In this document: one piece after another, positions 16,854-31,320 of the stretch | How positions within the stretch are numbered: the first letter of the stretch is position 1 | Layout of the letters: each line of letters begins with the position of its first letter | Origin: Candidatus Omnitrophota bacterium | GTDB taxonomy: Bacteria; Omnitrophota; Gorgyraeia; Duberdicusellales; 4484-171 | Assembly (NCBI GenBank): GCA_014729775.1 | Contig: WJJJ01000006.1 | Location: forward strand, 16,694 to 80,693 | Direction: 5' to 3' | DNA length: 64,000 nucleotides | Made by a program: the position numbers and the translations under genes | Notes under the pieces: generated by a model | The model's input: the letters and a program-made list of their open reading frames with translations, nothing else | What the model was told of the DNA's origin: nothing | Databases searched by the model: none

Positions 16854-17933
16854 TTATATTTTAATCCGGTTTCCGTTTTCGTCAAAGAAAAACATCCTTT
16901 TTTCGTCGATCTCCACGCCGACTTGAGCACAGTCTCCCGGAATATCCCCACGGCGGGCGACGGTCACTTCCCGTTCCGAGCCGACGTCCACGCGCGCGTA
17001 TGTTTCCTCTCCCAGAGATTCGGTATAGACCACCCTCCCGTTCATCTGCCCTCCTTCCTTAATCGTACGGGCGGCAGCCGGCCGGAATCCAAAATATACC
17101 CGCCCGTCCTGATACGGTTCCAACCCGGAGCCGAATCGTTCCGGAAGCTCTATCCTTATCCCCTCTTCGGCCAGCACCGGCCCGCCGTCGAAACCGACCT
17201 CCATACTGAGCACGTTCATCGGCGGAGTACCGATGAAACCGGCGACAAACAGCGTGCCCGGATCATGATACAACTCGCGGGGGGGCGAAATCTGCTCAAC
17301 TCTGCCTTCGCGTAACACCACTACCGCCTCTCCCAGCGACATGGCCTCCACCTGATCGTGAGTCACGTACATGATCGTTTTGCCGAGCCGCTGGTGAAGT
17401 TTGATAAACTCCCCTCTCAGTTCAATCCGCAATTTAGCGTCAAGGTTTGACAGCGGCTCGTCGAACAGAAACAGATCCGGATCACGCACGATCGCCCGGC
17501 CGGTAGCAACCCGCTGCTGCTGCCCCCCTGAAAGTTCCCGCGGATAACTATTTAATTTATGTTCGATATCCAGAATGCGGCTTACCTCCCGTACCCGCGA
17601 TGAAATCTCTTCGCGGGCAGCTTTTCTGACCCGCAGTCCGAACGCGATATTTTCGTATACGGACAGGTGCGGATAAAGCGCATAGTTTTGAAATACCATG
17701 GCGATATTGCGCCGGTAGGGCGGGCGGTGCGTCACATCCCGGCAACCGAGGAGTACCCGCCCGGCGGAAACTTCTTCAAGCCCGGCGATGCAGTTCAGCA
17801 GCGTCGATTTCCCGCATCCCGACGGACCGAGGATCACGTAGAACTTTCCCTCGGGAACGAAAAGATCAAGCTGATCAAGAGCGGTCAGCTCCCCGAACTT
17901 TTTACTCACTTTTTCCAGCTTCACTTCGGCCAT
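16854..17933 (-). CDS. sugar ABC transporter ATP-binding protein (MalK/UgpC-like)
   Basis: Walker [10 protein letters not shown], signature LSGGQQQRV, Walker [13 protein letters not shown], and a C-terminal transport-associated OB domain. Confidence 0.85.
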
Positions 17934-17937
17934 GCAT

Positions 17938-18756
17938 TTATCCTTTCATCGCTCCGGAAAGATACCCGGGACGGATATACCTCTGCAGGGCAAACGTAAA
18001 AATAAGGACCGGTATCGTGATAATCACCGCATAGGTTGCCGAAGAAAAAATATTCCCCCGGGAGATATAATAATACATTTTCAGCGGCATCGTCGGTTTC
18101 GACAGTGTCAGGTAAGAGGCGTAAATGAACTCATCCCACGAAAACATGAACGAAAAAATCCCGGCCACGCTGATACCCCTTAAAGACAGCGGCAAAACTA
18201 TTTTAAAAAACGCGTAGAGACGGCCGGCCCCGTCGATCAGCGCCTGTTTCTCAAGTTCTTTCGGAAAACTGGAAAACACTCCCACCAGAATAAAACAACT
18301 GATCGGCAGAACCCGGACCAGATGCGCCAGCATTAAGCCGAAAACGGTATCGAACAGTCCCCCTTTGATGAACGTAATCGAAACCGGCAGAGCGATGCTG
18401 ATTTCCGGGATCATCCGGGTGAGAAAGATGACCAGAATCAGTCCGTACCGGGCCCGGTAGCGAAACCGGGAAATCGCGTAGGCCGCGGGCACGGTGAGCA
18501 AAAGGCTTAACACGCTCGTCCCCAGCGCGGTCACAACGCTTTTGCTCAACGGCGCGAAGAACACGCTGCCGGAAGCGAGCACGTCGCGGAAATGGCTGAG
18601 AGTAAAATGCCGTACCAAATAGGGCGGATTCTGCGTAAACACGTCCCGGGGCGCGCTGACCGATATTTTCAACATGATATACATCGGAAAAACCAGCAGG
18701 CAGACGAGGATGAGTACCGTCATCCAGAAAAAAGTCCGTTTGACTGGTCTATTCAT
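17938..18756 (-). CDS. carbohydrate ABC transporter permease (MalG/UgpE-like)
   Basis: Six TM helices with the EAA loop. Start chosen at MNRPVKRT, giving a 4-nt overlap with the upstream permease. Confidence 0.8.
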   Translation of the reverse strand: MNRPVKRTFFWMTVLILVCLLVFPMYIMLKISVSAPRDVFTQNPPYLVRHFTLSHFRDVLASGSVFFAPLSKSVVTALGTSVLSLLLTVPAAYAISRFRYRARYGLILVIFLTRMIPEISIALPVSITFIKGGLFDTVFGLMLAHLVRVLPISCFILVGVFSSFPKELEKQALIDGAGRLYAFFKIVLPLSLRGISVAGIFSFMFSWDEFIYASYLTLSKPTMPLKMYYYISRGNIFSSATYAVIITIPVLIFTFALQRYIRPGYLSGAMKG

Positions 18757-19640
18757 GCGCCCGCGATTCCTTTCCTGCCTGCCGTTTTCAGATAGATCAA
18801 TACCGCGCACAGGATCATCCCCAGCAGAATAACCGAACTTGCCGCGGAAGTGTAGGGATTATTGTATTCCTGGTACTCCAGATAGGCGAAGGTGCCGATC
18901 ACTTTCAGGTTCTGTCCCATCAGGATCAGCGGCACCGCGAAAATACGGAACGCATCGACCCCTCGGATAATCACCGCGGCGGTAATCGACGGTACCAGCA
19001 GCGGCAGGGTAATCCGCCGGAACGTATAGAACACGCCCGCTCCGTCGATCCGGGCCGCCTTGTAGAGCACCGGATCGATCGACTGCAGACCGGATAAAAG
19101 GATCAGCATCACGATCGGTGTGACCTTCCAGCTGTCGGCGAGACTGACCATGACAATCGACCGCCACCCTCCGGACATCCAGTACACCGGCTCATTCAAT
19201 ACGCCCAGGTCCATGAGAATGCGGTTAATCCATCCCTGACCGGAAAACAGATAACTCATCATCACGCCGACGACTGCCGTGGGAATCGCTAAGGGAAGAA
19301 TAAAGACCGGCCGCAGGAACCGGATAACCCGAGAGCTTTTTGAAAGGATCAGCGCAAACAAGAACCCCAGACCGATCTCGATCGAAAGACTCAAAAAAGC
19401 GATAGAAACCGTATGAAACATCGCCAGACGGAACCCCTCCTGGGCAAACAATTCGCGGTAGTGGCTCATTGTAAGGCCGTTTCCTTCCACCGGCTCAAGA
19501 CTGAGCAATACCGTACGTGCAATCGGAACGACGGTCAGCACGCAGAGAAAAATCAGCAGCGGAAGGATACAGATAAGTTCGAAATGTTTCTTTCGCGCGC
19601 GACGCGCCAGCAACGGAAAAAAGGATAACAAACGGTTCAT
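18753..19640 (-). CDS. carbohydrate ABC transporter permease (MalF/UgpA-like)
   Basis: TM helices with EAA-like motif (KAARIDGAGVFYTFRRITLPLL). Confidence 0.8.
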   Translation of the reverse strand: MNRLLSFFPLLARRARKKHFELICILPLLIFLCVLTVVPIARTVLLSLEPVEGNGLTMSHYRELFAQEGFRLAMFHTVSIAFLSLSIEIGLGFLFALILSKSSRVIRFLRPVFILPLAIPTAVVGVMMSYLFSGQGWINRILMDLGVLNEPVYWMSGGWRSIVMVSLADSWKVTPIVMLILLSGLQSIDPVLYKAARIDGAGVFYTFRRITLPLLVPSITAAVIIRGVDAFRIFAVPLILMGQNLKVIGTFAYLEYQEYNNPYTSAASSVILLGMILCAVLIYLKTAGRKGIAGA

Positions 19641-20857
19641 CGCTCCCGGTAAAGCTCCTTTGCTCCTTCCAGCTTCTTCTTATATTTCTTCAAGGTTTCT
19701 TCGACCGGCGCCTGCTCAATGACAATTTCCCGAAACGCTTCGGTCACGTATTTTACGTAAGCCGGCCACCAGGTCACATTTTCGCGGAATTCGCCGTGTT
19801 TCATGGCTTTCTGCACGGAAGCGTAATACTGCTTCTGCCACTCTTCCACCTGACCGTAGGCATCCGTCCGCATGGACGGCCATCCAAGTTCGCCTACCAG
19901 CAACTCCTGGACTTCTTTCGACTGGAGAAACCAGATGAATTTTCGTGCCAGCTCTTTTCTGGCGCTGATCGAGGGAATTCCCAGCACGTCGCCGCCGATC
20001 ACGTGCCGCTCTCCGTGGGGCCCTTTCCAGCCGCTGTAGGTCCCGATGAAATCAAGTCCGTACTCTTTTACCAGAATGGTCACGCCAAACGGCCAGTTCT
20101 GCGCCAGATAGACCTGCTGATTTGCGATCATCCTGTTGGTGGTATCCCACTTGGCCCGCTGGGATCCCTGCGCGGCATACGGCCACAGCTTCTGTAGAAA
20201 AGCGAACGCCCGGATACAGCCCTCGTCATCAAAGGCGTACGGTTCACCGCCGGCCTGCAGGATGAATTCATACACCTGGGTAGCGGTCGGATTGCCGCCG
20301 AAACCTTTGAGCAGGATCCTTCCCCGCTCTTCCTTTTCTTTGAGCATTTTCGCGGTTTCCCGCAACTGCTCCCAGGTGCGGGGAACTTCAAGACCATATT
20401 CATCAAACTTTTCCTTATGGTAATAGACAATCTGTACGTTCGGACGAAAAGGCATGAACAGCAGTCTCCCGTCGAACTTCAGTGACTGTACAAGCGAGGG
20501 AATCGTATTGGCCGGGATCTCGTCCTCATATTGGCTGAGGTCCTCGACCAGCCCCTTATTCACCAGCACGGCCAGATTCATGTTATCCTGCGCGACCACG
20601 TCGATTTCCGCTTTACCCGCTTTCTGGAGCGCGTCGAGTTTGGTAGCGAGGCTGCCCGATTCGATCTGGATTCCTTCCACCTTCACGCCGTACCGGCTTT
20701 CGAAGAGAGGAAAGACTTTCGAACGCATGACCTGCCACTCGGATTCTCCGAGACTCATTGTGACCGTCAGACGATCTTTCGAACCGGAACCGGGCCCGCA
20801 GGAAATCAAAGCGAAGAGGAAGACGGCGGAGGCGCAGAAGAGAAATGGTTTTTTCAT
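19637..20857 (-). CDS. ABC transporter substrate-binding lipoprotein (solute-binding family 1)
   Basis: Lipobox LISCG, typical SBP_bac_1 size and composition, first gene of the transporter operon. Confidence 0.8.
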   Translation of the reverse strand: MKKPFLFCASAVFLFALISCGPGSGSKDRLTVTMSLGESEWQVMRSKVFPLFESRYGVKVEGIQIESGSLATKLDALQKAGKAEIDVVAQDNMNLAVLVNKGLVEDLSQYEDEIPANTIPSLVQSLKFDGRLLFMPFRPNVQIVYYHKEKFDEYGLEVPRTWEQLRETAKMLKEKEERGRILLKGFGGNPTATQVYEFILQAGGEPYAFDDEGCIRAFAFLQKLWPYAAQGSQRAKWDTTNRMIANQQVYLAQNWPFGVTILVKEYGLDFIGTYSGWKGPHGERHVIGGDVLGIPSISARKELARKFIWFLQSKEVQELLVGELGWPSMRTDAYGQVEEWQKQYYASVQKAMKHGEFRENVTWWPAYVKYVTEAFREIVIEQAPVEETLKKYKKKLEGAKELYRER

Positions 20858-20964
20858 ACCGTCATTATAACAAAAATAGCACAAGCCGTAAGTTTTTTCG
20901 AATAAGCGCGAGAAAGGAACGCCCTCTTACAGCCGGTACCCCGCGAAGGAGGGAAGAGATACGC

Positions 20965-21877: not shown

Positions 21878-22444
21878 TTACTTGAACCCGGCAGCGTAAT
21901 CGAAATCCCTCTGCATCACTGCCGCCTCGGTAACCAGATAGTAAGGGTAACGCACTCTGACCCGCCGGTATGCACTTTCCCCTCGCCAGGTCTTTTTGAA
22001 CCCCTCGGTGATTTTCAACCGCCGCAGCTCTACTGACAGCAAAGGAATGGTGCGTATTCCCCGAAGTACCCGAAACGTGCCTTTTACGTGAGGGTCTGCC
22101 GCAAACCAGGCAAAACTGTGCAGAGAATTTCGTAAATCGCGGCCGCAAGCCGTACGGCATGTACACTTATCCATATCTCCGTAACGGCGTTTCAGACGTT
22201 CGGCATCCTGGTAGCGAAGCACCAGGACATCGGCCCGGCTTGGGCCTGAGGGAGCAAACCCGTACACCAGATACCTGACCCTGCGAGCATCTTCCGAGAT
22301 CACCGCCCTGTACCGGTACCTGCGGCTTTCAATTACAATCTCACTTCCCTCTCGGGTAACTTTCTCCGGGGGAACCCGGTCACATCCCGCGGCCAACAGA
22401 ACAAAAAGCAGTGCCGCTAAAACCGATCGCGACCCTTTCCTCAT
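21878..22444 (-). CDS. hypothetical lipoprotein
   Basis: Lipobox LLAAGC after an internal start (MRKGSRSVLAALLFVLLAAGC). Confidence 0.4.
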   Translation of the reverse strand: MRKGSRSVLAALLFVLLAAGCDRVPPEKVTREGSEIVIESRRYRYRAVISEDARRVRYLVYGFAPSGPSRADVLVLRYQDAERLKRRYGDMDKCTCRTACGRDLRNSLHSFAWFAADPHVKGTFRVLRGIRTIPLLSVELRRLKITEGFKKTWRGESAYRRVRVRYPYYLVTEAAVMQRDFDYAAGFK

Positions 22445-22448
22445 TGGC

Positions 22449-23171
22449 TCATCCTTCCACCTGCCGCTCCTTGCGGCACCCGGAGGAAAACTGCGTTTTA
22501 ATCTTCTCACGGGAAAAAAATATCGACGTCAATGCCAGAGCGACCAGATAGATGCACGCGGAAACATACACAATATTCAGGTAAATTTGGGGAATAAAAT
22601 CCCACATGCCGCGCGCGCCCGGTCCGGAAGGAATCAACGACGCGCTCTGCCCGTTCAGATACTTGGTAAACGCGTGAAAACGCGCGGCCAGCCGGGAAAC
22701 GGGAAAGGTCGTCAGGTAGGCGCTTACGAACAGCAAAACGAGCCACGCGAACACGGCGGCAAAGCTGAACGCGATCCATTTCCTGGCGTCGGGACGAAGC
22801 CTGATAAGCGAATACCCGGTAAAGACCAGTACCCCCGCGGAAAGCGCCGAACACACAATGAACAGCAACGCGGAAACCGGCACGCCGGGCCGCATGATAA
22901 ACCGTTGGTGGAAACGGCGGATATCCGCGCGAATATCCTTCAGCTCCCGTCTCGCGCGCGCCGCCCGCTCGGGATTCTCTGCCGCTTTCTCATCCGTCAA
23001 TCGTTCTAATTCCCCGGTACGGGTGACCATCCCGCGGTACATGTGCGGAACGACGTCACGGTAGGCAAAGTAGGTCAATACCCCGCGCGCGCAGAGCAAC
23101 CCGAACAAAATAAACAGAATTCCGAAAATAATCACCCCCGCCGAGGGTTTTTTCATCATACCTCCTTTCAC
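22449..23171 (-). CDS. hypothetical polytopic membrane protein
   Basis: 4-5 TM helices. No recognisable motif. Confidence 0.4.
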   Translation of the reverse strand: MKGGMMKKPSAGVIIFGILFILFGLLCARGVLTYFAYRDVVPHMYRGMVTRTGELERLTDEKAAENPERAARARRELKDIRADIRRFHQRFIMRPGVPVSALLFIVCSALSAGVLVFTGYSLIRLRPDARKWIAFSFAAVFAWLVLLFVSAYLTTFPVSRLAARFHAFTKYLNGQSASLIPSGPGARGMWDFIPQIYLNIVYVSACIYLVALALTSIFFSREKIKTQFSSGCRKERQVEG

Positions 23172-23299: not shown

Positions 23300-24301
23300 T
23301 CATCTTTGAGATGATCGTTTGCGAAGAAAAGCCGCAGTTTTTCGCATCAGATACTTTCTCCATCCGCCTCTCAAAAAAACCGCTGATTCACGTTCCGACA
23401 ACACTCCGCGATCCCGCATCGCCTTTAACTGCATATAGGCCAGATTGAACTGACTCAGTGTACACATAAAGGTCTTGTTATACTGATCAGCGCAGTAATG
23501 CATCGGGCACTTGATAACCTTAGGAGCGGTACGCCATCCGGAAAAAAGATCACCGATTTTATTGGTATTCCGAATGAGCATGGACAGGCACGGAAAGACC
23601 TCATACCGGTCATTCAGACAAAAGGCCGTACATCCCGCCTGACAGTATTCTCCGTGCGGATTATGGAGTACGATCTTCGCCAGGGAGTTATACCGGAATA
23701 CCAGATCAAGCTCTTCTTTCGAATAGGAAACAGATCCCTGGTGAAACGGATAATTCCGCCCCTGATATTCTCCGCAGAACAACACCGGCATCACTTTAAT
23801 CCCGTGCGCCCGGAAAAGATCAATGTCTTTTTCCAACCTGGAGAATAACGGCGGATACGTGACATAATCGCCGGCCATTCTGAAACCTTTCGCCTGAAAC
23901 TCTTTAACTAGCACGATCAGATCCATGAGATCGAGACCGCGCTTTTCCCTTTCAAGCGCGTGAACGGAAAAGATAATCTCCGTGATCCGCTCAGGGCCCA
24001 CAGCATCGAGAAACGTCCGGCATCTGTCCGTGAGAGAAAGATTCGAATCGATCCGGACATAATGCTTTCTCTTCACTTCCTGAACAAACTCAATGAGATT
24101 AGGGATGAGAAAAGGCTCCCCTCCGCATATAGAAACCAGCAAAGTCCGGCCGAAACGGTCAAGTCCCTGCATGATACGGCCGATATCCAGCGTTTTGACG
24201 GAACGAGGGTCGCCGCAGTGCTGTCCACAGTATACACAGGAAAAGTTGCACACGTAGGACGGATGCATAAACACAAGAGTGTCGTAATCAACAAGTTCCA
24301 T
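23300..24301 (-). CDS. radical SAM enzyme with Cys-rich C-terminal (possible auxiliary Fe-S) region
   Basis: CNFSCVYCG (Cx3Cx2C) and GGEPFL motifs. The C-terminal cysteines are CQAGCTAFC..C and CPMHYC. Confidence 0.7.
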   Translation of the reverse strand: MELVDYDTLVFMHPSYVCNFSCVYCGQHCGDPRSVKTLDIGRIMQGLDRFGRTLLVSICGGEPFLIPNLIEFVQEVKRKHYVRIDSNLSLTDRCRTFLDAVGPERITEIIFSVHALEREKRGLDLMDLIVLVKEFQAKGFRMAGDYVTYPPLFSRLEKDIDLFRAHGIKVMPVLFCGEYQGRNYPFHQGSVSYSKEELDLVFRYNSLAKIVLHNPHGEYCQAGCTAFCLNDRYEVFPCLSMLIRNTNKIGDLFSGWRTAPKVIKCPMHYCADQYNKTFMCTLSQFNLAYMQLKAMRDRGVLSERESAVFLRGGWRKYLMRKTAAFLRKRSSQR

Positions 24302-25034
24302 TTCTTACTCCCTTCCGTGAGACGCTGCTGATCTTTCTTATCGCAGCCCTGACCGCCGACAGACCGGATTTTAACTGCCGCCGGCGCACCTGGCGTCGTA
24401 TGTGCTTGAGTTGTTCGATCTTCAGCTGGAGCGAACCGATCTTTCTGCCGTTCCTTTCGCAGGGCACCGTCCCGTTCGCGTGATGAAGCACAATATCCCG
24501 CGGGGGATTCCCCCCGTGAGTCATCGCCCAGAATTGCCGCGGCAAAACATCCCAGCGCAGTCCGATAGTGTTTTCCTGCAGAATAGCGTTTATCGCGGAC
24601 TGATCGAAATGTCTCATCTTTTCATAATCGATTTTCAGTACCGCCTCGAAAAAAGACAGTGTCTTTTCGTTGCAGCGGATCACCATAAACCCGCTGTTGA
24701 TCTCTTTCTGCGGCCAGTGTTCGGCCTGAAACAGGATATCCTTTCCCTTGATCTCCCGGCGGATAAGAGGGGTGCATTCCCGAAAAAACTGGATGTCGAG
24801 ATCTGACCAGATGATCACCTTCCCGTAATTCTCTTTTACCAAGCGAACCAGATATTGCAGTTTTATCCTGACCAGCTCAAGGAACCCCGGAGACGACCAA
24901 TCGCCGCCGCCTTCACCGGCGGCCCCCAGATAGTCGATTCGTACATCCCAATCATCCCGCAATGTCTTCAGAAAGATCTTTTTAAAATATTCCGCCTCAT
25001 CCGTGCACAGCGCGTACAAGCTGAATGATGACAT
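24288..25034 (-). CDS. putative nucleotide-diphospho-sugar transferase (Nucleotid_trans-like glycosyltransferase)
   Basis: DxD-like IIWSDLDIQF and the overall GT-A-like pattern. Overlaps the radical SAM gene start by 14 nt. Confidence 0.5.
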   Translation of the reverse strand: MSSFSLYALCTDEAEYFKKIFLKTLRDDWDVRIDYLGAAGEGGGDWSSPGFLELVRIKLQYLVRLVKENYGKVIIWSDLDIQFFRECTPLIRREIKGKDILFQAEHWPQKEINSGFMVIRCNEKTLSFFEAVLKIDYEKMRHFDQSAINAILQENTIGLRWDVLPRQFWAMTHGGNPPRDIVLHHANGTVPCERNGRKIGSLQLKIEQLKHIRRQVRRRQLKSGLSAVRAAIRKISSVSRKGVRNGTC

Positions 25035-25058
25035 GAGCAGCTCCTTTTTTTCAGCAGT

Positions 25059-26360
25059 TTATCCAAGGAAGTTTTTCCGAACGAAATCGCGGACGCGCAA
25101 TACGATGTTGTCCATGTTCAGATATTCCCAATTGCCGTTTCGTCCCAACAAAAAAACGTTCCGCGCTTCCAGCGTATCTTTGATTCCCTTTTTCACCTCC
25201 GCAAGACCCAAGGTAGGTATCATGTAGGTATATTCGACCCGCCTGATATCTGTCACTTGCACATCCTCAGCCGACCGCAGGACTCCGATCCGCATGAGAT
25301 CGTTTACGACCGCCCCGCTCATCTCTTCCGGTGACATACCGGAAGCGCGTCCTTTATCCGTAATCTCAGCCACGGCCGCGGCAGGAAAACGGTTACTGAA
25401 ATTATGCATGAGCGTAAGTCGGTAAAAAACCTCATCACCTTTGAAAAACACCCAGTGGCAATCATCTATCATACGGAATCGCGCGCCATCCTTAAGCCCT
25501 ACCATGATAAAGAACGTATGATTCCATCTGAGTTGGTCATAATGAGATCGGATCCCTTCCATTTCAATCGCGCGGAGCAGCTCCGGCAGGGGAATCGTGG
25601 AAATCACCGTATCTGCCTCAAATTTCTGCCCACGGGTCGTAAAGATACCCCACCGACCGTTTTGCTGCCGCAGATGGCTGACTTTCGCGTTCGTCACGAC
25701 CCTGTTCTGTATGTCCCGGCCGATATGATCTGTCAGGGCCTGAACGCCTTCCCGGGGATAGATGAATTTGGCCTGATACGCTCTGCCGACTTCTTTTTTC
25801 CAGAACACGTTTTTCATGAACTCTAATGGTGCGGCCGGTTCGATCTTGACGCTTACCAGGTCGGAAGATATCTCCGATAAAGGACAGTTCCATATTTTCC
25901 GGTTATAAGGCACCATGAAATGCCGAGCGGTACCGAATCCGGAATAACTTTCGATCCATTCCGCAAGCGTGTGGACATCTTTCTTCCGCCGGGCAAAGAC
26001 GTACCCTAACACACATTCAAGCTTTTCCCGGATCGGCAGATCCCGTATACCATTTTCAAAAGGATAATCGAGCAGGACTGTCCGGCCGTTTCCTTTGCGA
26101 TGGACAATCTTGACATTTCTGTCAGAATATTGATAGTCAAGCGGCAGGGAACAAAAAAAATCCATCGCTTCCTGGCTGCGGCTGTAGATCGCATGGACGG
26201 CAAAATCCCAACGGTAAGGCCCGGTGGTATTCGTACGGCATAACCCTCCGGTCCTCGGTTCTTTTTCCAGGACTACGAAATCCTTCCCCTGTTCGTTCAG
26301 ACGGCGTCCAAGTTCCAGACCCGCCAGACCGCCTCCCAACACTGCTATTTTAACGGACAT
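25059..26360 (-). CDS. FAD/NAD(P)-binding oxidoreductase, UDP-galactopyranose-mutase / amine-oxidase-like
   Basis: N-terminal Rossmann motif KIAVLGGGLAGLELG..VLEKEPRTGG. Length and motifs resemble UGM/protoporphyrinogen-oxidase-like flavoenzymes. Confidence 0.65.
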   Translation of the reverse strand: MSVKIAVLGGGLAGLELGRRLNEQGKDFVVLEKEPRTGGLCRTNTTGPYRWDFAVHAIYSRSQEAMDFFCSLPLDYQYSDRNVKIVHRKGNGRTVLLDYPFENGIRDLPIREKLECVLGYVFARRKKDVHTLAEWIESYSGFGTARHFMVPYNRKIWNCPLSEISSDLVSVKIEPAAPLEFMKNVFWKKEVGRAYQAKFIYPREGVQALTDHIGRDIQNRVVTNAKVSHLRQQNGRWGIFTTRGQKFEADTVISTIPLPELLRAIEMEGIRSHYDQLRWNHTFFIMVGLKDGARFRMIDDCHWVFFKGDEVFYRLTLMHNFSNRFPAAAVAEITDKGRASGMSPEEMSGAVVNDLMRIGVLRSAEDVQVTDIRRVEYTYMIPTLGLAEVKKGIKDTLEARNVFLLGRNGNWEYLNMDNIVLRVRDFVRKNFLG

Positions 26361-26551
26361 ATCTTTACAGGTGACACAAAAACGGTAAAGCCTGCTCTAA
26401 TTTTTCTCTGCCTCTATCAATTATACACTATCCCCGGGCAGATGGGTATCCCTGCCTCGCGCGGGGCGTCCGCCGACGCCGGTATCTCATTCGCGAACGC
26501 GTCCTCATCAAGAAAAATCATGCATACCCTGTCTTTCCGCACCGGCCCAGC

Positions 26552-27124
26552 TCATTCGAACTGTTCTCTCACCTCGGACCGGGTAAAGAAAAACACCACC
26601 GCGCCCACGACCGCGGATAATAATACTATTTCACGGATGATCATCATTTCATAAATCTGAAACACATTCCCTATGACCGTGCTTATACTTCCGGAAACAC
26701 CGCTGTTCTCAACCGCCACTCCCGCGACGATCACCGCGACCATGTTCCCCAGCATCGAAACCGAAGTAATCACCTTACAGATCCCGCCGGTGATCACCGC
26801 GCCCAGCGTAATTTTCCTCCAGTCTTCCTTCAAGCGCAGAATATTTATCCCTCCCCAGAATGTGAGGAACGCCATGAACGGCAGAAGCACGAATACCACG
26901 CTGAGCGACCACGGATTGGCAAACTCTTTCTCAAAAAAACCAACGATCAGAGAAAGCTGCCGCGGCGACAAATGAGCCGAAGCGCCCTGCAGCCAGTGGA
27001 GAAGCACCGGCTTGTTGACGATCCACAAATAGATCATAAATACCGCCTGAAAAAAAATCACCCCTCCGGCGACAGACAACAGCACGCCCATCACCGTAAC
27101 CCCGATTGATCTTCGCGTATTCAT
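26552..27124 (-). CDS. hypothetical polytopic membrane protein
   Basis: 5 predicted TM helices. Start chosen at MNTRRS. Confidence 0.4.
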   Translation of the reverse strand: MNTRRSIGVTVMGVLLSVAGGVIFFQAVFMIYLWIVNKPVLLHWLQGASAHLSPRQLSLIVGFFEKEFANPWSLSVVFVLLPFMAFLTFWGGINILRLKEDWRKITLGAVITGGICKVITSVSMLGNMVAVIVAGVAVENSGVSGSISTVIGNVFQIYEMMIIREIVLLSAVVGAVVFFFTRSEVREQFE

Positions 27125-27250
27125 ACTCCGCCTTTCTTTTCTTCGGGTCTCCTCGCCCATCCCGGGTCCACACTCTCCCTATCCGGACCGGGCCTCCCTG
27201 ACACATCTTCCCCGCGCATTCCCAAAACGCCCAGAGGAATAATCCTCTTA

Positions 27251-27281
27251 TTCCCCCATTTGTCCACCCCGGCGGTGGACA
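27251..27281. promoter_or_regulatory. perfect 13-5-13 palindrome CCATTTGTCCACC-CCGGC-GGTGGACAAATGG
   Basis: Read directly from the sequence; it sits in the promoter region of 26552..27124. A related half-site CCGGGGTGGATAAATGG lies at 28864..28880, upstream of the TPR gene. Confidence 0.4.
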
Positions 27282-27342
27282 AATGGCTGCACCAGCCGGC
27301 CCGAGACCCGTGCCCCCAATACATCAGCACCGGATCATTTCA

Positions 27343-27978
27343 TTATTCATGTATGTACGCCCACTTCCTCATTCTCTCTATCGAGCCGCCGAACGCGTAT
27401 TCCGGATAGTTCTGCTCCGGGTAATACAGAAATATATCCCAATTCAGAATCCCCAGGGGCGTCTCCACGTACAGAACCCAGGGATTGCCGTGCCACTGCC
27501 TTGAGCTATCGGCCCGTTCATAACGGTATTCCGGATACGCGCCCATATCGGTCCCGGGGATTTTTTCAATATACTGGGGCACCAGCGCCTCAAGATTATC
27601 CGGCGGTTCCCCTTTATCCGCAGTGTACTGCCTGATCGCCTCGACCAGCGGTTCGGACCGTTCTGCCAGTGCGCGAAACCGCCGCGCGCGGACGTCCACC
27701 GCGGCGCGAACTGCCAGCGTAATGCCGACAAACAGAATAGACGCCAAAAGCATTGATACCGCGAATCGCCGCGGTCGGGGAAACAGTGCCAGCACCGCCG
27801 CCGCCGGCACCAGCAGGACCGCCGCCACAAACGGCAGAACAAAAAAGACCGATGCCTGCTGGAGAGCCATAGACCCCCGCGGGGAAAGCGCATACCATTT
27901 TAAAAATAGCTCTATACCGTTGACCACCAACGCTATGCCGCCTGCGGCCAGCATAGTCACGATCATTTTTTTCTTCAT
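27343..27978 (-). CDS. hypothetical membrane protein with extracytoplasmic C-terminal domain
   Basis: Three N-terminal TM helices, then a soluble domain (EKIPGTDMGAYPEYRYERAD..). Confidence 0.4.
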   Translation of the reverse strand: MKKKMIVTMLAAGGIALVVNGIELFLKWYALSPRGSMALQQASVFFVLPFVAAVLLVPAAAVLALFPRPRRFAVSMLLASILFVGITLAVRAAVDVRARRFRALAERSEPLVEAIRQYTADKGEPPDNLEALVPQYIEKIPGTDMGAYPEYRYERADSSRQWHGNPWVLYVETPLGILNWDIFLYYPEQNYPEYAFGGSIERMRKWAYIHE

Positions 27979-29469: not shown

Positions 29470-31320
29470 TTACTTCCCTGTCGCTTCTTCCATAATCTCC
29501 GTCATCCGTTTAAAAAACTCCGGCGACGGAGGTCTGTTCTGTTCAAGCGCGAGCGCCCCCTCATACAGCTGAAGGATGTAGTTTTTCAGGCGGGGGTCGT
29601 TACTATCGGCCATGTACAATTTGGAAAGGTTTTTCGTCAGCGGGTGTTCAAGGTTAATCTCCATGATCTTCTTCGATGCGGTAAAATTCTTGTCCATCGC
29701 GGACATGAGCTTCTCCATCTGCGCGTCCATGCCCTTGCTGCCGGCCACCAGCGTCACCGGCGAATCCACCAGCCGTTTCGACGGCCGCACGTCCTCGACC
29801 GTATCGGCCAGCGCGGAACGGAATACTGACAGCAATCCCTTGGATAAACTGTCCTGCGGCGTCTCCACTTTGCTCTCGGCTTCGGCCACATCGGCCTTGT
29901 CCGCCGATTCAAGCTTCTTCTTCTCGTACTCCCCGATCGAGGGCACGATGAACACGTCCACCGGATCGGTCAGGAGAAGGACTTCAATCTCGTTCTTGCG
30001 GAAGTATTCCAGATTCGGGTTGCGTTCCAGCATCTGCCGGTTCTCCCCGGAAAGGTAATAGATCGCTTTCTGATCCGGCTTCATCGCCTCGACGTACTGC
30101 TTCAACGACACCAGCTCCCCGGCGCCGCGTTTTGACGATTCAAACCGCAGCAGTGACAGGATCGTATCGCGGTTCTCGAAATCCACCTGCACACCGGTCT
30201 TAAACAGCGGACCGAACTCGCGGTAGAACTTCTCATACTTCTCCCGGTCGGTCTTAGCCCAATCCTGCAGCATTCCCAGAACCTTGGAAGTGAGCACCTT
30301 GCGGATCCGCGCGGTGGTCGGGCTCGACTGTGTCACCTCGCGTGAAACGTTCAAGGGCAGATCCGGCGTATCCACCACGCCTTTGACGAAGCGCAGATAT
30401 TCGGGCACAAGCGCCTTGGCGTCATCCTGGATCATGATCTTGTTGGCGTAAAGGTGCACTGTCTTCTCGTGCTGATAGCCCCAGGTACTCAGCGGAGCCT
30501 TGCCCGGGATGAACAGCAGCGCTTTGAAATTCACCGTGCCCTCCAGCGACAGGTGCAGATGTCCCATGGGCTCGTCGGTATCGTTGGTCAGGAATTTATA
30601 AAACTCATTGCGTTCGCTTTCCGAGACCTCATCTTTCTTCCGCCGCCACAGCGCCTCCACCGTATTGACTTTTTCATTATTGAGCAGTATCGGGAAATCG
30701 GCGAAATTGGAATAGCGGGTGATGATGCCTTTGACCGCATAGGGCTGGCTGAATTGCTGTGAATTCTCTTTAAGCGTAAATGAAATCTTGGTGCCCTGCG
30801 CTTTGCGGTCGATCTCCTCGACCGTAAACTGCCCGCTGCCTGTCGACGTCCAGCGGAAAGCCCTGCCATCCGGCGCGGCGTGCCGCGTTTCGACCGTCAC
30901 CTCATCGGCGACCATGAATACCGAATAGAACCCGATGCCAAAACGCCCGATCAGGCTCTCCTTATCCGCGCCCTGCCCCTGCTTGACCTGCTCCAAGAAC
31001 TCCAGCGTCCCTGAACGGGCCACCGTGCCCAGGTTATTGATCAGCTCATCCCTGGTCATGCCCACGCCGAAATCCTCAATGGAAAAGGTGTGTTTTTTCT
31101 CATCCACGCTGATGCGAATCTCCGCGGGCAGAGATTCATCGAGTACGGGCTGGCCCGTTGCTTTGCGGAAGCGCAGTTTATTCAGCGCGTCGGAAGAGTT
31201 GGAAATGAGTTCGCGTAAGAATACTTCGGGATGGGTATAGAGTGAATGGGCGATGAGATGAAGCAACTGCTTCATCTCAGCTTTGTATTCGTACGTCTGC
31301 GGCGTCGTCTGGTTACTCAT
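29470..31320 (-). CDS. htpG: molecular chaperone HtpG (Hsp90)
   Basis: The N-terminal ATPase pattern EVFLRELISNSSDALNKLRF, including the conserved NASDA-like segment (NSSDA), GIGFYS, and a full-length 616 aa. Confidence 0.9.
   Translation of the reverse strand: MSNQTTPQTYEYKAEMKQLLHLIAHSLYTHPEVFLRELISNSSDALNKLRFRKATGQPVLDESLPAEIRISVDEKKHTFSIEDFGVGMTRDELINNLGTVARSGTLEFLEQVKQGQGADKESLIGRFGIGFYSVFMVADEVTVETRHAAPDGRAFRWTSTGSGQFTVEEIDRKAQGTKISFTLKENSQQFSQPYAVKGIITRYSNFADFPILLNNEKVNTVEALWRRKKDEVSESERNEFYKFLTNDTDEPMGHLHLSLEGTVNFKALLFIPGKAPLSTWGYQHEKTVHLYANKIMIQDDAKALVPEYLRFVKGVVDTPDLPLNVSREVTQSSPTTARIRKVLTSKVLGMLQDWAKTDREKYEKFYREFGPLFKTGVQVDFENRDTILSLLRFESSKRGAGELVSLKQYVEAMKPDQKAIYYLSGENRQMLERNPNLEYFRKNEIEVLLLTDPVDVFIVPSIGEYEKKKLESADKADVAEAESKVETPQDSLSKGLLSVFRSALADTVEDVRPSKRLVDSPVTLVAGSKGMDAQMEKLMSAMDKNFTASKKIMEINLEHPLTKNLSKLYMADSNDPRLKNYILQLYEGALALEQNRPPSPEFFKRMTEIMEEATGK

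Follow-up and report, generated by a model that had tools for sequence, protein, structure and literature searches.

The closest described relatives of the system reported here are modules in which a gene for UDP-galactopyranose mutase (UGM; glf) lies beside galactofuranosyltransferase genes, as in glf/wbbI of E. coli K-12, the mycobacterial glf/glfT1/glfT2 genes and the pam locus of Kingella. Our subject is a cassette of three genes, encoding a UGM-like flavoenzyme, a glycosyltransferase (GT) and a radical S-adenosylmethionine (SAM) enzyme, at positions 23,300 to 26,360 of a 64,000-nucleotide stretch of DNA (the window) from a Candidatus Omnitrophota bacterium (assembly GCA_014729775.1; contig WJJJ01000006.1, positions 16,694 to 80,693). 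Like the glf modules, the cassette places a UGM-type flavoenzyme gene beside a transferase that would use its product, it recurs in surface-glycan loci, and several orthologous cassettes carry a genuine Glf as the mutase. Unlike them, it contains a transferase of the PF03407 or GT77-like type, with a retaining-type GT-A fold, instead of a GT2 enzyme; its mutase in the window is of the eukaryote-like type of about 430 amino acids (aa); and a radical SAM gene is coupled to the GT gene. We consider it fairly probable that the trio is a furanosyl-glycan cassette, which makes a furanose, attaches it to a surface glycan and tailors it by radical SAM chemistry. Modules of a mutase and a furanosyltransferase are already known; new would be a furanosyltransferase role for the GT77-like family, the occurrence in bacteria of a mutase of the eukaryote-like type, and the coupled orphan radical SAM enzyme of the twitch type. 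Mammals lack furanose sugars, which are targets in pathogens, and the enzymes that transfer them are poorly catalogued. A bacterial GT77-like furanosyltransferase family would be a new entry among them.

The individual proteins also have characterized counterparts. The GT shares the PF03407 domain and the DxD motif with the eukaryotic GT77 enzymes (plant RRA, XEG113 and ExAD, the RGXT xylosyltransferases and Dictyostelium AgtA), but is bacterial, small (248 aa) and without an N-terminal membrane anchor. Several plant GT77 members use a furanose donor, UDP-arabinofuranose, and RRA, XEG113 and ExAD are arabinofuranosyltransferases; the acceptors of the eukaryotic enzymes are glycoproteins such as extensins and Skp1. 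The radical SAM protein resembles the twitch/SPASM sugar enzymes BtrN, BlsE and AbmM, and also DesII, in its partial TIM-barrel core, in a length of about 270 to 330 aa and in a single C-terminal auxiliary-cluster domain with a beta-hairpin and helix. All of these enzymes are significant Foldseek matches, and BtrN and AbmM are weak sequence matches as well. It differs from BtrN, BlsE and AbmM, however, in that sequence similarity is limited to the first 100 residues or so, TM-scores are about 0.45 to 0.52, the cysteine spacing is different, and the genomic setting is a surface-glycan locus and not an antibiotic pathway. The order of steps, in which a glycosyltransferase attaches a sugar and a radical SAM enzyme then modifies it, is found in the hopanoid HpnI/HpnJ pair and with the archaeal calditol synthase, although no sequence relationship to these was detected and the contexts here are polysaccharide loci. 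HpnJ is a radical SAM enzyme of the B12 type. Viperins and their prokaryotic relatives (pVips) share the N-terminal CX3CX2C and GGEP core with our protein, but there is no homology past residue 96 or so, our protein has an auxiliary-cluster domain, and its genes do not lie in a defence context. To our knowledge, very few radical SAM enzymes act in the assembly of surface polysaccharides.

Organization of the cassette and properties of its proteins

In the list of open reading frames (ORFs) of the window, the three genes follow one another on the minus strand in the order flavoenzyme, GT, radical SAM enzyme:

26361..26551, minus strand: presumed promoter region of the three-gene operon, a 191-nt intergenic interval recognized from gene spacing only
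26360..25059, minus strand: UGM-like FAD enzyme, putative nucleotide-sugar pyranose/furanose mutase (433 aa), first gene of the cassette
25034..24288, minus strand: GT77-like (PF03407) DxD glycosyltransferase with a GT-A fold, putative furanosyltransferase (248 aa) with a basic C-terminal helix
24301..23300, minus strand: radical SAM enzyme with a twitch-like four-cysteine auxiliary-cluster domain (333 aa)

An interval of 24 nt separates the flavoenzyme gene from the GT gene, the GT and radical SAM genes overlap by 14 nt (24288-24301), and the radical SAM gene appears to be translationally coupled to the GT gene. Gaps of 191 nt upstream and 128 nt downstream set the trio off from its neighbours. 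Databases contain identical proteins, which come from an NCBI MAG (metagenome-assembled genome) labelled Candidatus Omnitrophica. The promoter is presumed to lie in the upstream interval because this is the sole sizeable gap before the tightly packed genes; a consensus scan of its minus strand found no sigma-70-like site. The original prediction, made by a model from the sequence of the window, had described these three ORFs, their overlap, several motifs and the three family assignments, and all of these hold. The ORFs encode 433, 248 and 333 aa, CNFSCVYC and GGEPFL occupy residues 18-25 and 60-65 of the radical SAM protein, the DLD motif lies at residues 78-80 of the GT, and each protein scores above the Pfam gathering score of its family.

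The flavoenzyme matches the Pfam models Amino_oxidase (60.5 bits) and NAD_binding_8 (43.9 bits). Its best matches in a PDB sequence search are eukaryote-type UGMs, with which it is homologous over its full length: those of A. fumigatus (AfUGM; 3ute, E 3.3e-27) and T. cruzi (4dsg, E 5.7e-22, residues 3-414). Only the N-terminal Rossmann segment aligns with amine oxidases and with protoporphyrinogen oxidase. In the alignment from the PDB search, AfUGM residues H63, W315, R327, Y419 and Y453 correspond to H56, W303, R314, Y379 and Y413 of the flavoenzyme. These residues, and likewise the PYNxKIW motif, are invariant or at least 90% conserved among 34 family members down to 30% identity. Between the UGM and amine-oxidase types that had been proposed together, the PDB matches and the conserved residues thus point to the former. 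More than 450 matches at E<=1e-10 show that this is a large family. Many members (P0077, P0079, P0085 and others) are named 'protoporphyrinogen oxidase' in their source databases, and some 'NAD(P)-binding protein'; given the conserved UGM residues, the first of these names is probably a misannotation, and the present assignment would correct such likely errors across the family.

The GT matches the Pfam model Nucleotid_trans (PF03407) with 44.1 bits against a cut-off of 22 (E 3e-11), at low identity to the Pfam consensus. PF03407 corresponds to a GT77-type family in CAZy, and one homologue of the GT is named 'glycosyltransferase family 77 protein' by NCBI. D78-x-D80, D99 and H184-H185 are invariant among 25 homologues. 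A PDB sequence search with the GT gave no match, and a fold search was therefore needed. The AlphaFold2 (AF2) model has a predicted local distance difference test score (pLDDT) of 93.8, and its top Foldseek matches are the retaining GT-A enzymes GlyE, glycogenin, LgtC, GT6, LARGE1 and UGGT (E about 1e-6, TM about 0.5). The invariant D78-x-D80 and the matches to GT8, GT6, LARGE1 and UGGT identify a GT-A fold with a DxD site for metal and nucleotide sugar. Residues 201-248 of the model form a long helix with 14 Lys/Arg residues.

The radical SAM protein matches PF04055 (Radical_SAM) with 41.6 bits against a cut-off of 29.5, and its radical core starts near residue 14. An alignment of 32 homologues, down to 24% identity, shows that C18, C22 and C25 of the CX3CX2C motif and G60, G61, E62 and P63 are invariant, as are C220, C238 and C265 in the C-terminal region, where C270 is at least 90% conserved. 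In the close subfamily, the only invariant cysteines are C18/C22/C25 and C220/C238/C265/C270. The auxiliary cysteines have the spacing C-x17-C-x26-C-x4-C. In the AF2 model (pLDDT 92) a beta-hairpin and a helix lie between them (strands 226-229 and 234-236, then helix 239-243), as in the cysteine-rich C-terminal domain of the SPASM/twitch subgroup. The Pfam scan gave no match to PF13186, and the full seven-cysteine SPASM motif (CX9-15GX4C...CX2CX5CX3C...C) is not found, there being four conserved auxiliary cysteines only. For these reasons the auxiliary domain is best described, from the model, as twitch-like, with a single and fully cysteine-ligated auxiliary cluster, and not as a full SPASM domain. 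The auxiliary iron-sulfur cluster suggested in the original prediction is thus backed both by cysteine conservation and by the predicted fold. Residues 286-333 are helical and carry 13 Lys/Arg residues in the model.

SPASM/twitch enzymes rank first among the Foldseek matches of the radical SAM protein (SuiB, SkfB, BlsE, CteB, anSME, PqqE, EpeE and AbmM; E 2e-10 to 7e-6, TM about 0.45 to 0.54), and BlsE, AbmM and DesII among its structural neighbours act on sugars or nucleoside sugars. Sequence similarity to characterized families (viperins, MoaA, HpnH, BtrN and AbmM) ends near residue 100. In the NCBIfam scan every match lies far below its cut-off and covers the N-terminal core only. Membership in a well-characterized housekeeping family, such as a cofactor maturase, had been named as a finding that would overturn the prediction; no NCBIfam family reaches its cut-off, and this identity is rejected. 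Among viral structures in BFVD, the best matches are uncharacterized radical SAM proteins of the Campylobacter phages CP21, CP220 and IBB35, which at TM 0.60/0.64 are closer to the model than any solved structure.

Gene neighbourhoods of related cassettes

Close relatives of the radical SAM protein are few: a word-indexed search of 5.8 billion clustered proteins gave 35 matches, mostly from Omnitrophota. A GTDB-wide locus scan was made with an alignment of this close subfamily, and the three proteins of the window, together with three Glf sequences, served as queries against all six-frame ORFs of the resulting locus set and of the contigs of relatives. Ten distinct loci can be compared (the window, L001, L003, L005/L098, L006, L012/L097, L091, L093, L102 and L111), from metagenome-assembled genomes (MAGs) labelled Omnitrophota or Planctomycetota. 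A GT77-like gene adjoins the radical SAM gene on the same strand in all ten (radical SAM identity at least 49%), and the two usually overlap by 4 nt. A mutase-type flavoenzyme gene lies within about 3.5 kb in each of the nine loci with enough flanking sequence. The synteny of the block in relatives, which had been set as a test of the prediction, is therefore seen for both partners.

The arrangement of the window (flavoenzyme, GT, radical SAM enzyme, with overlapping genes) is found exactly in L091. Variants include a SPASM gene inserted between flavoenzyme and GT genes (L006), glf in place of the window's flavoenzyme (L001 and L003), glf with the order of the GT and radical SAM genes inverted (L111), and a mutase-like gene together with an epimerase gene and the GT-radical SAM pair (L005 and L012). 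L006 (E 2e-183) and L091 have an orthologue of the window flavoenzyme, L005, L012 and L102 encode an amine-oxidase/UGM-like protein that is more distant from it, and bacterial Glf is found in L001, L003 and L111. The flavoenzyme of L003 is a genuine Glf, scoring 380 bits against a cut-off of 303.75 with TIGR00031 (UDP-GALP_mutase). Most of these loci are polysaccharide or surface-glycan loci. Neighbouring genes encode Wzz, Poly_export, GT11, MBOAT and FkbM methyltransferase proteins in L001; Wzy_C and Polysacc_synt_2 in L006; GT2 and a nucleoside diphosphate (NDP)-sugar epimerase in L005; GT43, an epimerase and FemAB-like proteins in L003; and GT4 and a sulfotransferase in L091.

Three of the orthologous cassettes contain a second, unrelated radical SAM/SPASM gene (300-325 aa) directly upstream of the GT gene, at 5849-6772 of L001, 1315-2229 and 4299-5201 of L005, and 6255-7232 of L006. 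Its product has weak spiro-SPASM or tungsten-cofactor-maturase-like matches, and the gene is absent from the window.

The link between GT and mutase extends to loci that have no radical SAM gene. A metagenome scan with a GT profile showed a UGM-type gene within 5 kb of the GT gene for 13 of the 15 close GT orthologues with usable flanks. Many of these loci lack the radical SAM gene (L092 from Mucilaginibacter gossypiicola, L094, L095/L106, L096, L099, L100, L105 and L109), so that the core functional link is between the GT and the mutase. A transferase gene linked in this way to a mutase gene classically indicates a furanosyltransferase that uses what the mutase makes. Since close GT orthologues pair with Glf or another mutase and work without the radical SAM enzyme, the latter is a facultative third partner, whose step is optional in evolution.

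One of these loci, L092 (FOCL01000001.1, 1778-19242), combines glf and a gene for a GT77-like protein of 413 aa, which has an additional C-terminal domain, with two or three genes for C39-peptidase ABC exporters and VKOR-thioredoxin proteins, GT2 genes and ORFs of 66-87 aa. The locus may direct the production of a secreted peptide that carries galactofuranose.

The wider radical SAM family comprises 786 representative clusters at E<=1e-30 in an exhaustive profile search (about 800 at 50% identity), largely from uncultured Omnitrophota, Ignavibacteriota, Bacteroidota and archaea. Several members are natural fusions: with GT2 and a SAM methyltransferase (P0284), with GT2 in a called gene adjoining an FkbM methyltransferase gene (P0324; L171 88-1854), with a methyltransferase (P0308) and with an N-terminal sulfotransferase (P0313). 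In another fusion protein (P0193) the C-terminal extension is not GT77-like. In an Omnitrophota locus (L020), tandem radical SAM paralogues lie within the series Wzm/Wzt, mutase, GT2, radical SAM, radical SAM, GT and GT2, the mutase being a UGM-like flavoenzyme. Relatives of about 30% identity in Bacteroidales are located between ABC-2/ABC_tran exporter genes and B12-radical SAM methyltransferase genes, and other distant relatives adjoin sulfotransferase, nucleotidyltransferase or epimerase genes. Clustering of the neighbours of about 50 relatives revealed no single partner conserved across the broad family, with other radical SAM/SPASM genes (16 loci) and mutase-like flavoenzymes (6 loci) as exceptions. 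These fusions, as Rosetta-stone evidence, and the genomic contexts tie the family to glycan assembly or tailoring, and not to defence, cofactors or ribosomally synthesized and post-translationally modified peptides (RiPPs).

Four to six paralogues from this family stand in tandem in Asgard (Hermod- and Promethearchaeota) and Pacearchaeota MAGs (L026 912-5254; L029 9827-14226; L037 5224-10909), and single polypeptides can contain up to five radical SAM repeats (P0209, 1482 aa).

Proposed pathway and competing explanations

A self-contained cytoplasmic cassette would, in our proposal, add a tailored furanose to a membrane-anchored glycan, or possibly to a glycolipid or glycoprotein. The FAD enzyme would contract an NDP-pyranose to the furanose, most likely UDP-galactopyranose to UDP-galactofuranose, a step suggested by homology and conserved catalytic residues. 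The GT would then transfer the furanose from this donor to an acceptor on the inner side of the membrane; the fold, the DxD...HH metal site and the repeated linkage to two different mutase types point to this step, and furanosyl transfer as such to the gene linkage with mutases alone (13 of 15 loci). Finally, the radical SAM enzyme would cleave SAM at its CX3CX2C cluster and abstract a hydrogen from the sugar, either of the donor or, more likely, of the newly attached residue, with the auxiliary [4Fe-4S] cluster serving as an electron conduit for oxidation, epimerization or rearrangement. This last step is proposed from gene coupling, domain fusions and fold only. It is modelled on BtrN and anSME, we favour oxidation or epimerization, and the closest precedent for the reaction is sugar C-H activation in the manner of BtrN, BlsE or AbmM. 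None of the three proteins has a signal peptide and their cofactors are cytoplasmic, and the chemistry is therefore likely to take place at the cytoplasmic face. The basic C-terminal helices predicted for the GT and the radical SAM protein are consistent with peripheral membrane association.

Several observations weigh against this proposal. We know of no bacterial PF03407 enzyme with a demonstrated donor, and a literature search returned no paper that joins a radical SAM enzyme with galactofuranose, UGM or GT77. The flavoenzyme scores 28.5 bits against the cut-off of 303.75 for bacterial Glf (TIGR00031) in NCBIfam and has no PF03275 match in the Pfam scan; because of this it is labelled UGM-like, and by sequence it is not a Glf orthologue of the bacterial type. 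Two AfUGM positions are changed in it, R182 to Lys (K172) and G62 to Val, although we regard the set of catalytic and substrate residues as retained despite these replacements. The top Foldseek matches of the radical SAM protein (SuiB, SkfB, CteB and anSME) modify peptides or proteins, with TM-scores of only about 0.5. In a neighbour-joining tree of GT orthologues, those linked to a radical SAM gene and those linked to glf alone are interspersed, and a specialized radical SAM-linked GT clade is not supported. Lastly, no recognizable polysaccharide locus surrounds the trio in the window.

The structural matches to peptide and protein maturases would fit a different pathway, in which the GT glycosylates a protein or ribosomal peptide and the radical SAM enzyme, a maturase in the style of SuiB, SkfB or anSME, modifies that protein or peptide too; possible targets are the lipoprotein or the membrane proteins encoded next to the trio. 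The glycoprotein acceptors of characterized eukaryotic GT77 enzymes, the ORFs of 30-44 aa downstream of the radical SAM gene in L001 and L005, and the GT77-like gene and glf in the bacteriocin-like setting of L092, with its C39 exporters, VKOR/thioredoxin fusions and small ORFs, also agree with it. L092, however, lacks the radical SAM gene, and the loci that have one contain no conserved precursor-like ORF, protease or exporter gene. Nor does the radical SAM protein have a RiPP recognition element or other N-terminal peptide-recognition domain, related loci encode no homologues of the proteins that flank the trio, and the fusion partners (GT2, methyltransferase and sulfotransferase) are typical of glycan tailoring, so that we judge a peptide or protein pathway quite improbable. 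Glycosylation of a membrane lipid, with the radical SAM enzyme remodelling the sugar of the head group to give an unusual glycolipid and not a polysaccharide, also has a low probability in our estimate. The basic amphipathic C-terminal helices of both enzymes suggest membrane association, in the window the trio is flanked by genes for membrane proteins and is not close to wzx, wzy or wzm genes, lipid pathways offer precedents for a glycosyltransferase followed by a radical SAM enzyme, and there is a weak N-terminal NCBIfam match to HpnH. But that match, which is limited to the radical core, scores only 34 bits where the cut-off is 225, most related loci contain genes for polysaccharide export or polymerization, and lipid-synthesis genes are not conserved nearby.

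The original prediction had left open whether the trio belongs to glycan tailoring or to an antiviral nucleotide-modifying system, with a viperin-like radical SAM enzyme making chain-terminating nucleotides. The contexts of the related loci (Wzz, Poly_export, Wzy_C, Wzm/Wzt, GT2, GT4, GT11, epimerases and sulfotransferases) fit the former. An antiviral role draws on weak pVip matches (PADLOC, E 4e-7; NCBIfam viperin_w_prok, E 5e-5), on profile matches to viperin structures (up to E 1.5e-10) and on the phage radical SAM proteins that are the best viral structural matches. The similarity to viperins is, however, confined to residues 9-96 or so, the generic core around the SAM-binding cluster: the NCBIfam model NF038283 aligns with residues 13-80 alone, at 22.6 bits where its cut-off is 180, and the PADLOC pVip matches span residues 11-80. 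The conserved four-cysteine auxiliary domain is absent from viperins, and no related locus has defence genes beside the radical SAM gene, the contexts being glycan loci. With no full-length match above cut-off and no location in a defence island, membership among the viperins or pVips is rejected, and an antiviral function becomes very improbable. We give as little credence to the idea that the three genes adjoin by chance and share no pathway, and that the radical SAM enzyme has an unrelated function, for instance in cofactor maturation. Other glycan genes are not nearby in the window, and there are weak N-terminal matches to MoaA, NrdG and tungsten-cofactor-maturase models; but the matches to cofactor families are all far below cut-off, the radical SAM family includes GT2 fusions, and the adjacency recurs with overlapping reading frames in ten distinct loci across two phylum labels. 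Chance adjacency is largely refuted by this synteny.

The radical SAM family of the cassette might represent the first radical SAM class that acts, with a partner GT, on furanosyl residues in glycans linked to a lipid or polymer. This more specific idea is speculative, and we see only a small chance that it is correct. If true, it would bring to surface polysaccharides a radical SAM chemistry that is new to them, such as C-H oxidation, epimerization to a rare furanose, rearrangement of the carbon skeleton or, by analogy with calditol or cyclitol-ether synthesis, formation of a carbocycle. The family of about 800 clusters, with its fusions and archaeal arrays, would then reflect a widespread and unrecognized radical tailoring of glycans in uncultured anaerobes. 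A radical SAM gene in a glycan locus would not in itself astonish a specialist, but the cassette is compact and conserved and could reveal new radical carbohydrate chemistry. It is a three-gene system in which an orphan twitch-type family could gain a substrate and a reaction.

Flanking genes and the palindrome

The original prediction had bracketed the trio with lipoprotein and membrane-protein genes and a palindrome, and these are all present. In the ORF at 21878-22510 an internal Met is followed by a lipobox (LAAGC), the ORFs at 22449-23171 and 26552-27160 are hydrophobic and polytopic, and the ORF at 27343-27978 has N-terminal hydrophobic segments. A start of the 21878-22510 ORF at the internal Met (MRKGSRSV..., about 22444) removes its annotated overlap of 62 nt with 22449-23171. 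As parts of the system, however, the flanking features do not stand: in phmmer searches against all related loci, the membrane, lipoprotein and TPR proteins of the window had no homologue, apart from generic TPR matches, and the flanking proteins are rejected as members. PADLOC gave no match in them either. Further away lie an ABC sugar-uptake operon (solute-binding protein, two permeases and ATPase; 16854-20884), downstream of the cassette, and the gene for HtpG (Hsp90; 29470-31320), upstream; in other genomes neither of the two is connected with the cassette.

The palindrome is a perfect 13-5-13 repeat (27256-27268 / 27274-27286, CCATTTGTCCACC n5 GGTGGACAAATGG) between the genes at 27343-27978 and 26552-27160. 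It is a separate feature, not one conserved along with the cassette. On the minus strand it lies upstream of the membrane-protein gene at 27160..26552 and overlaps a -35-like TGGACA, and it is probably an operator for that gene.

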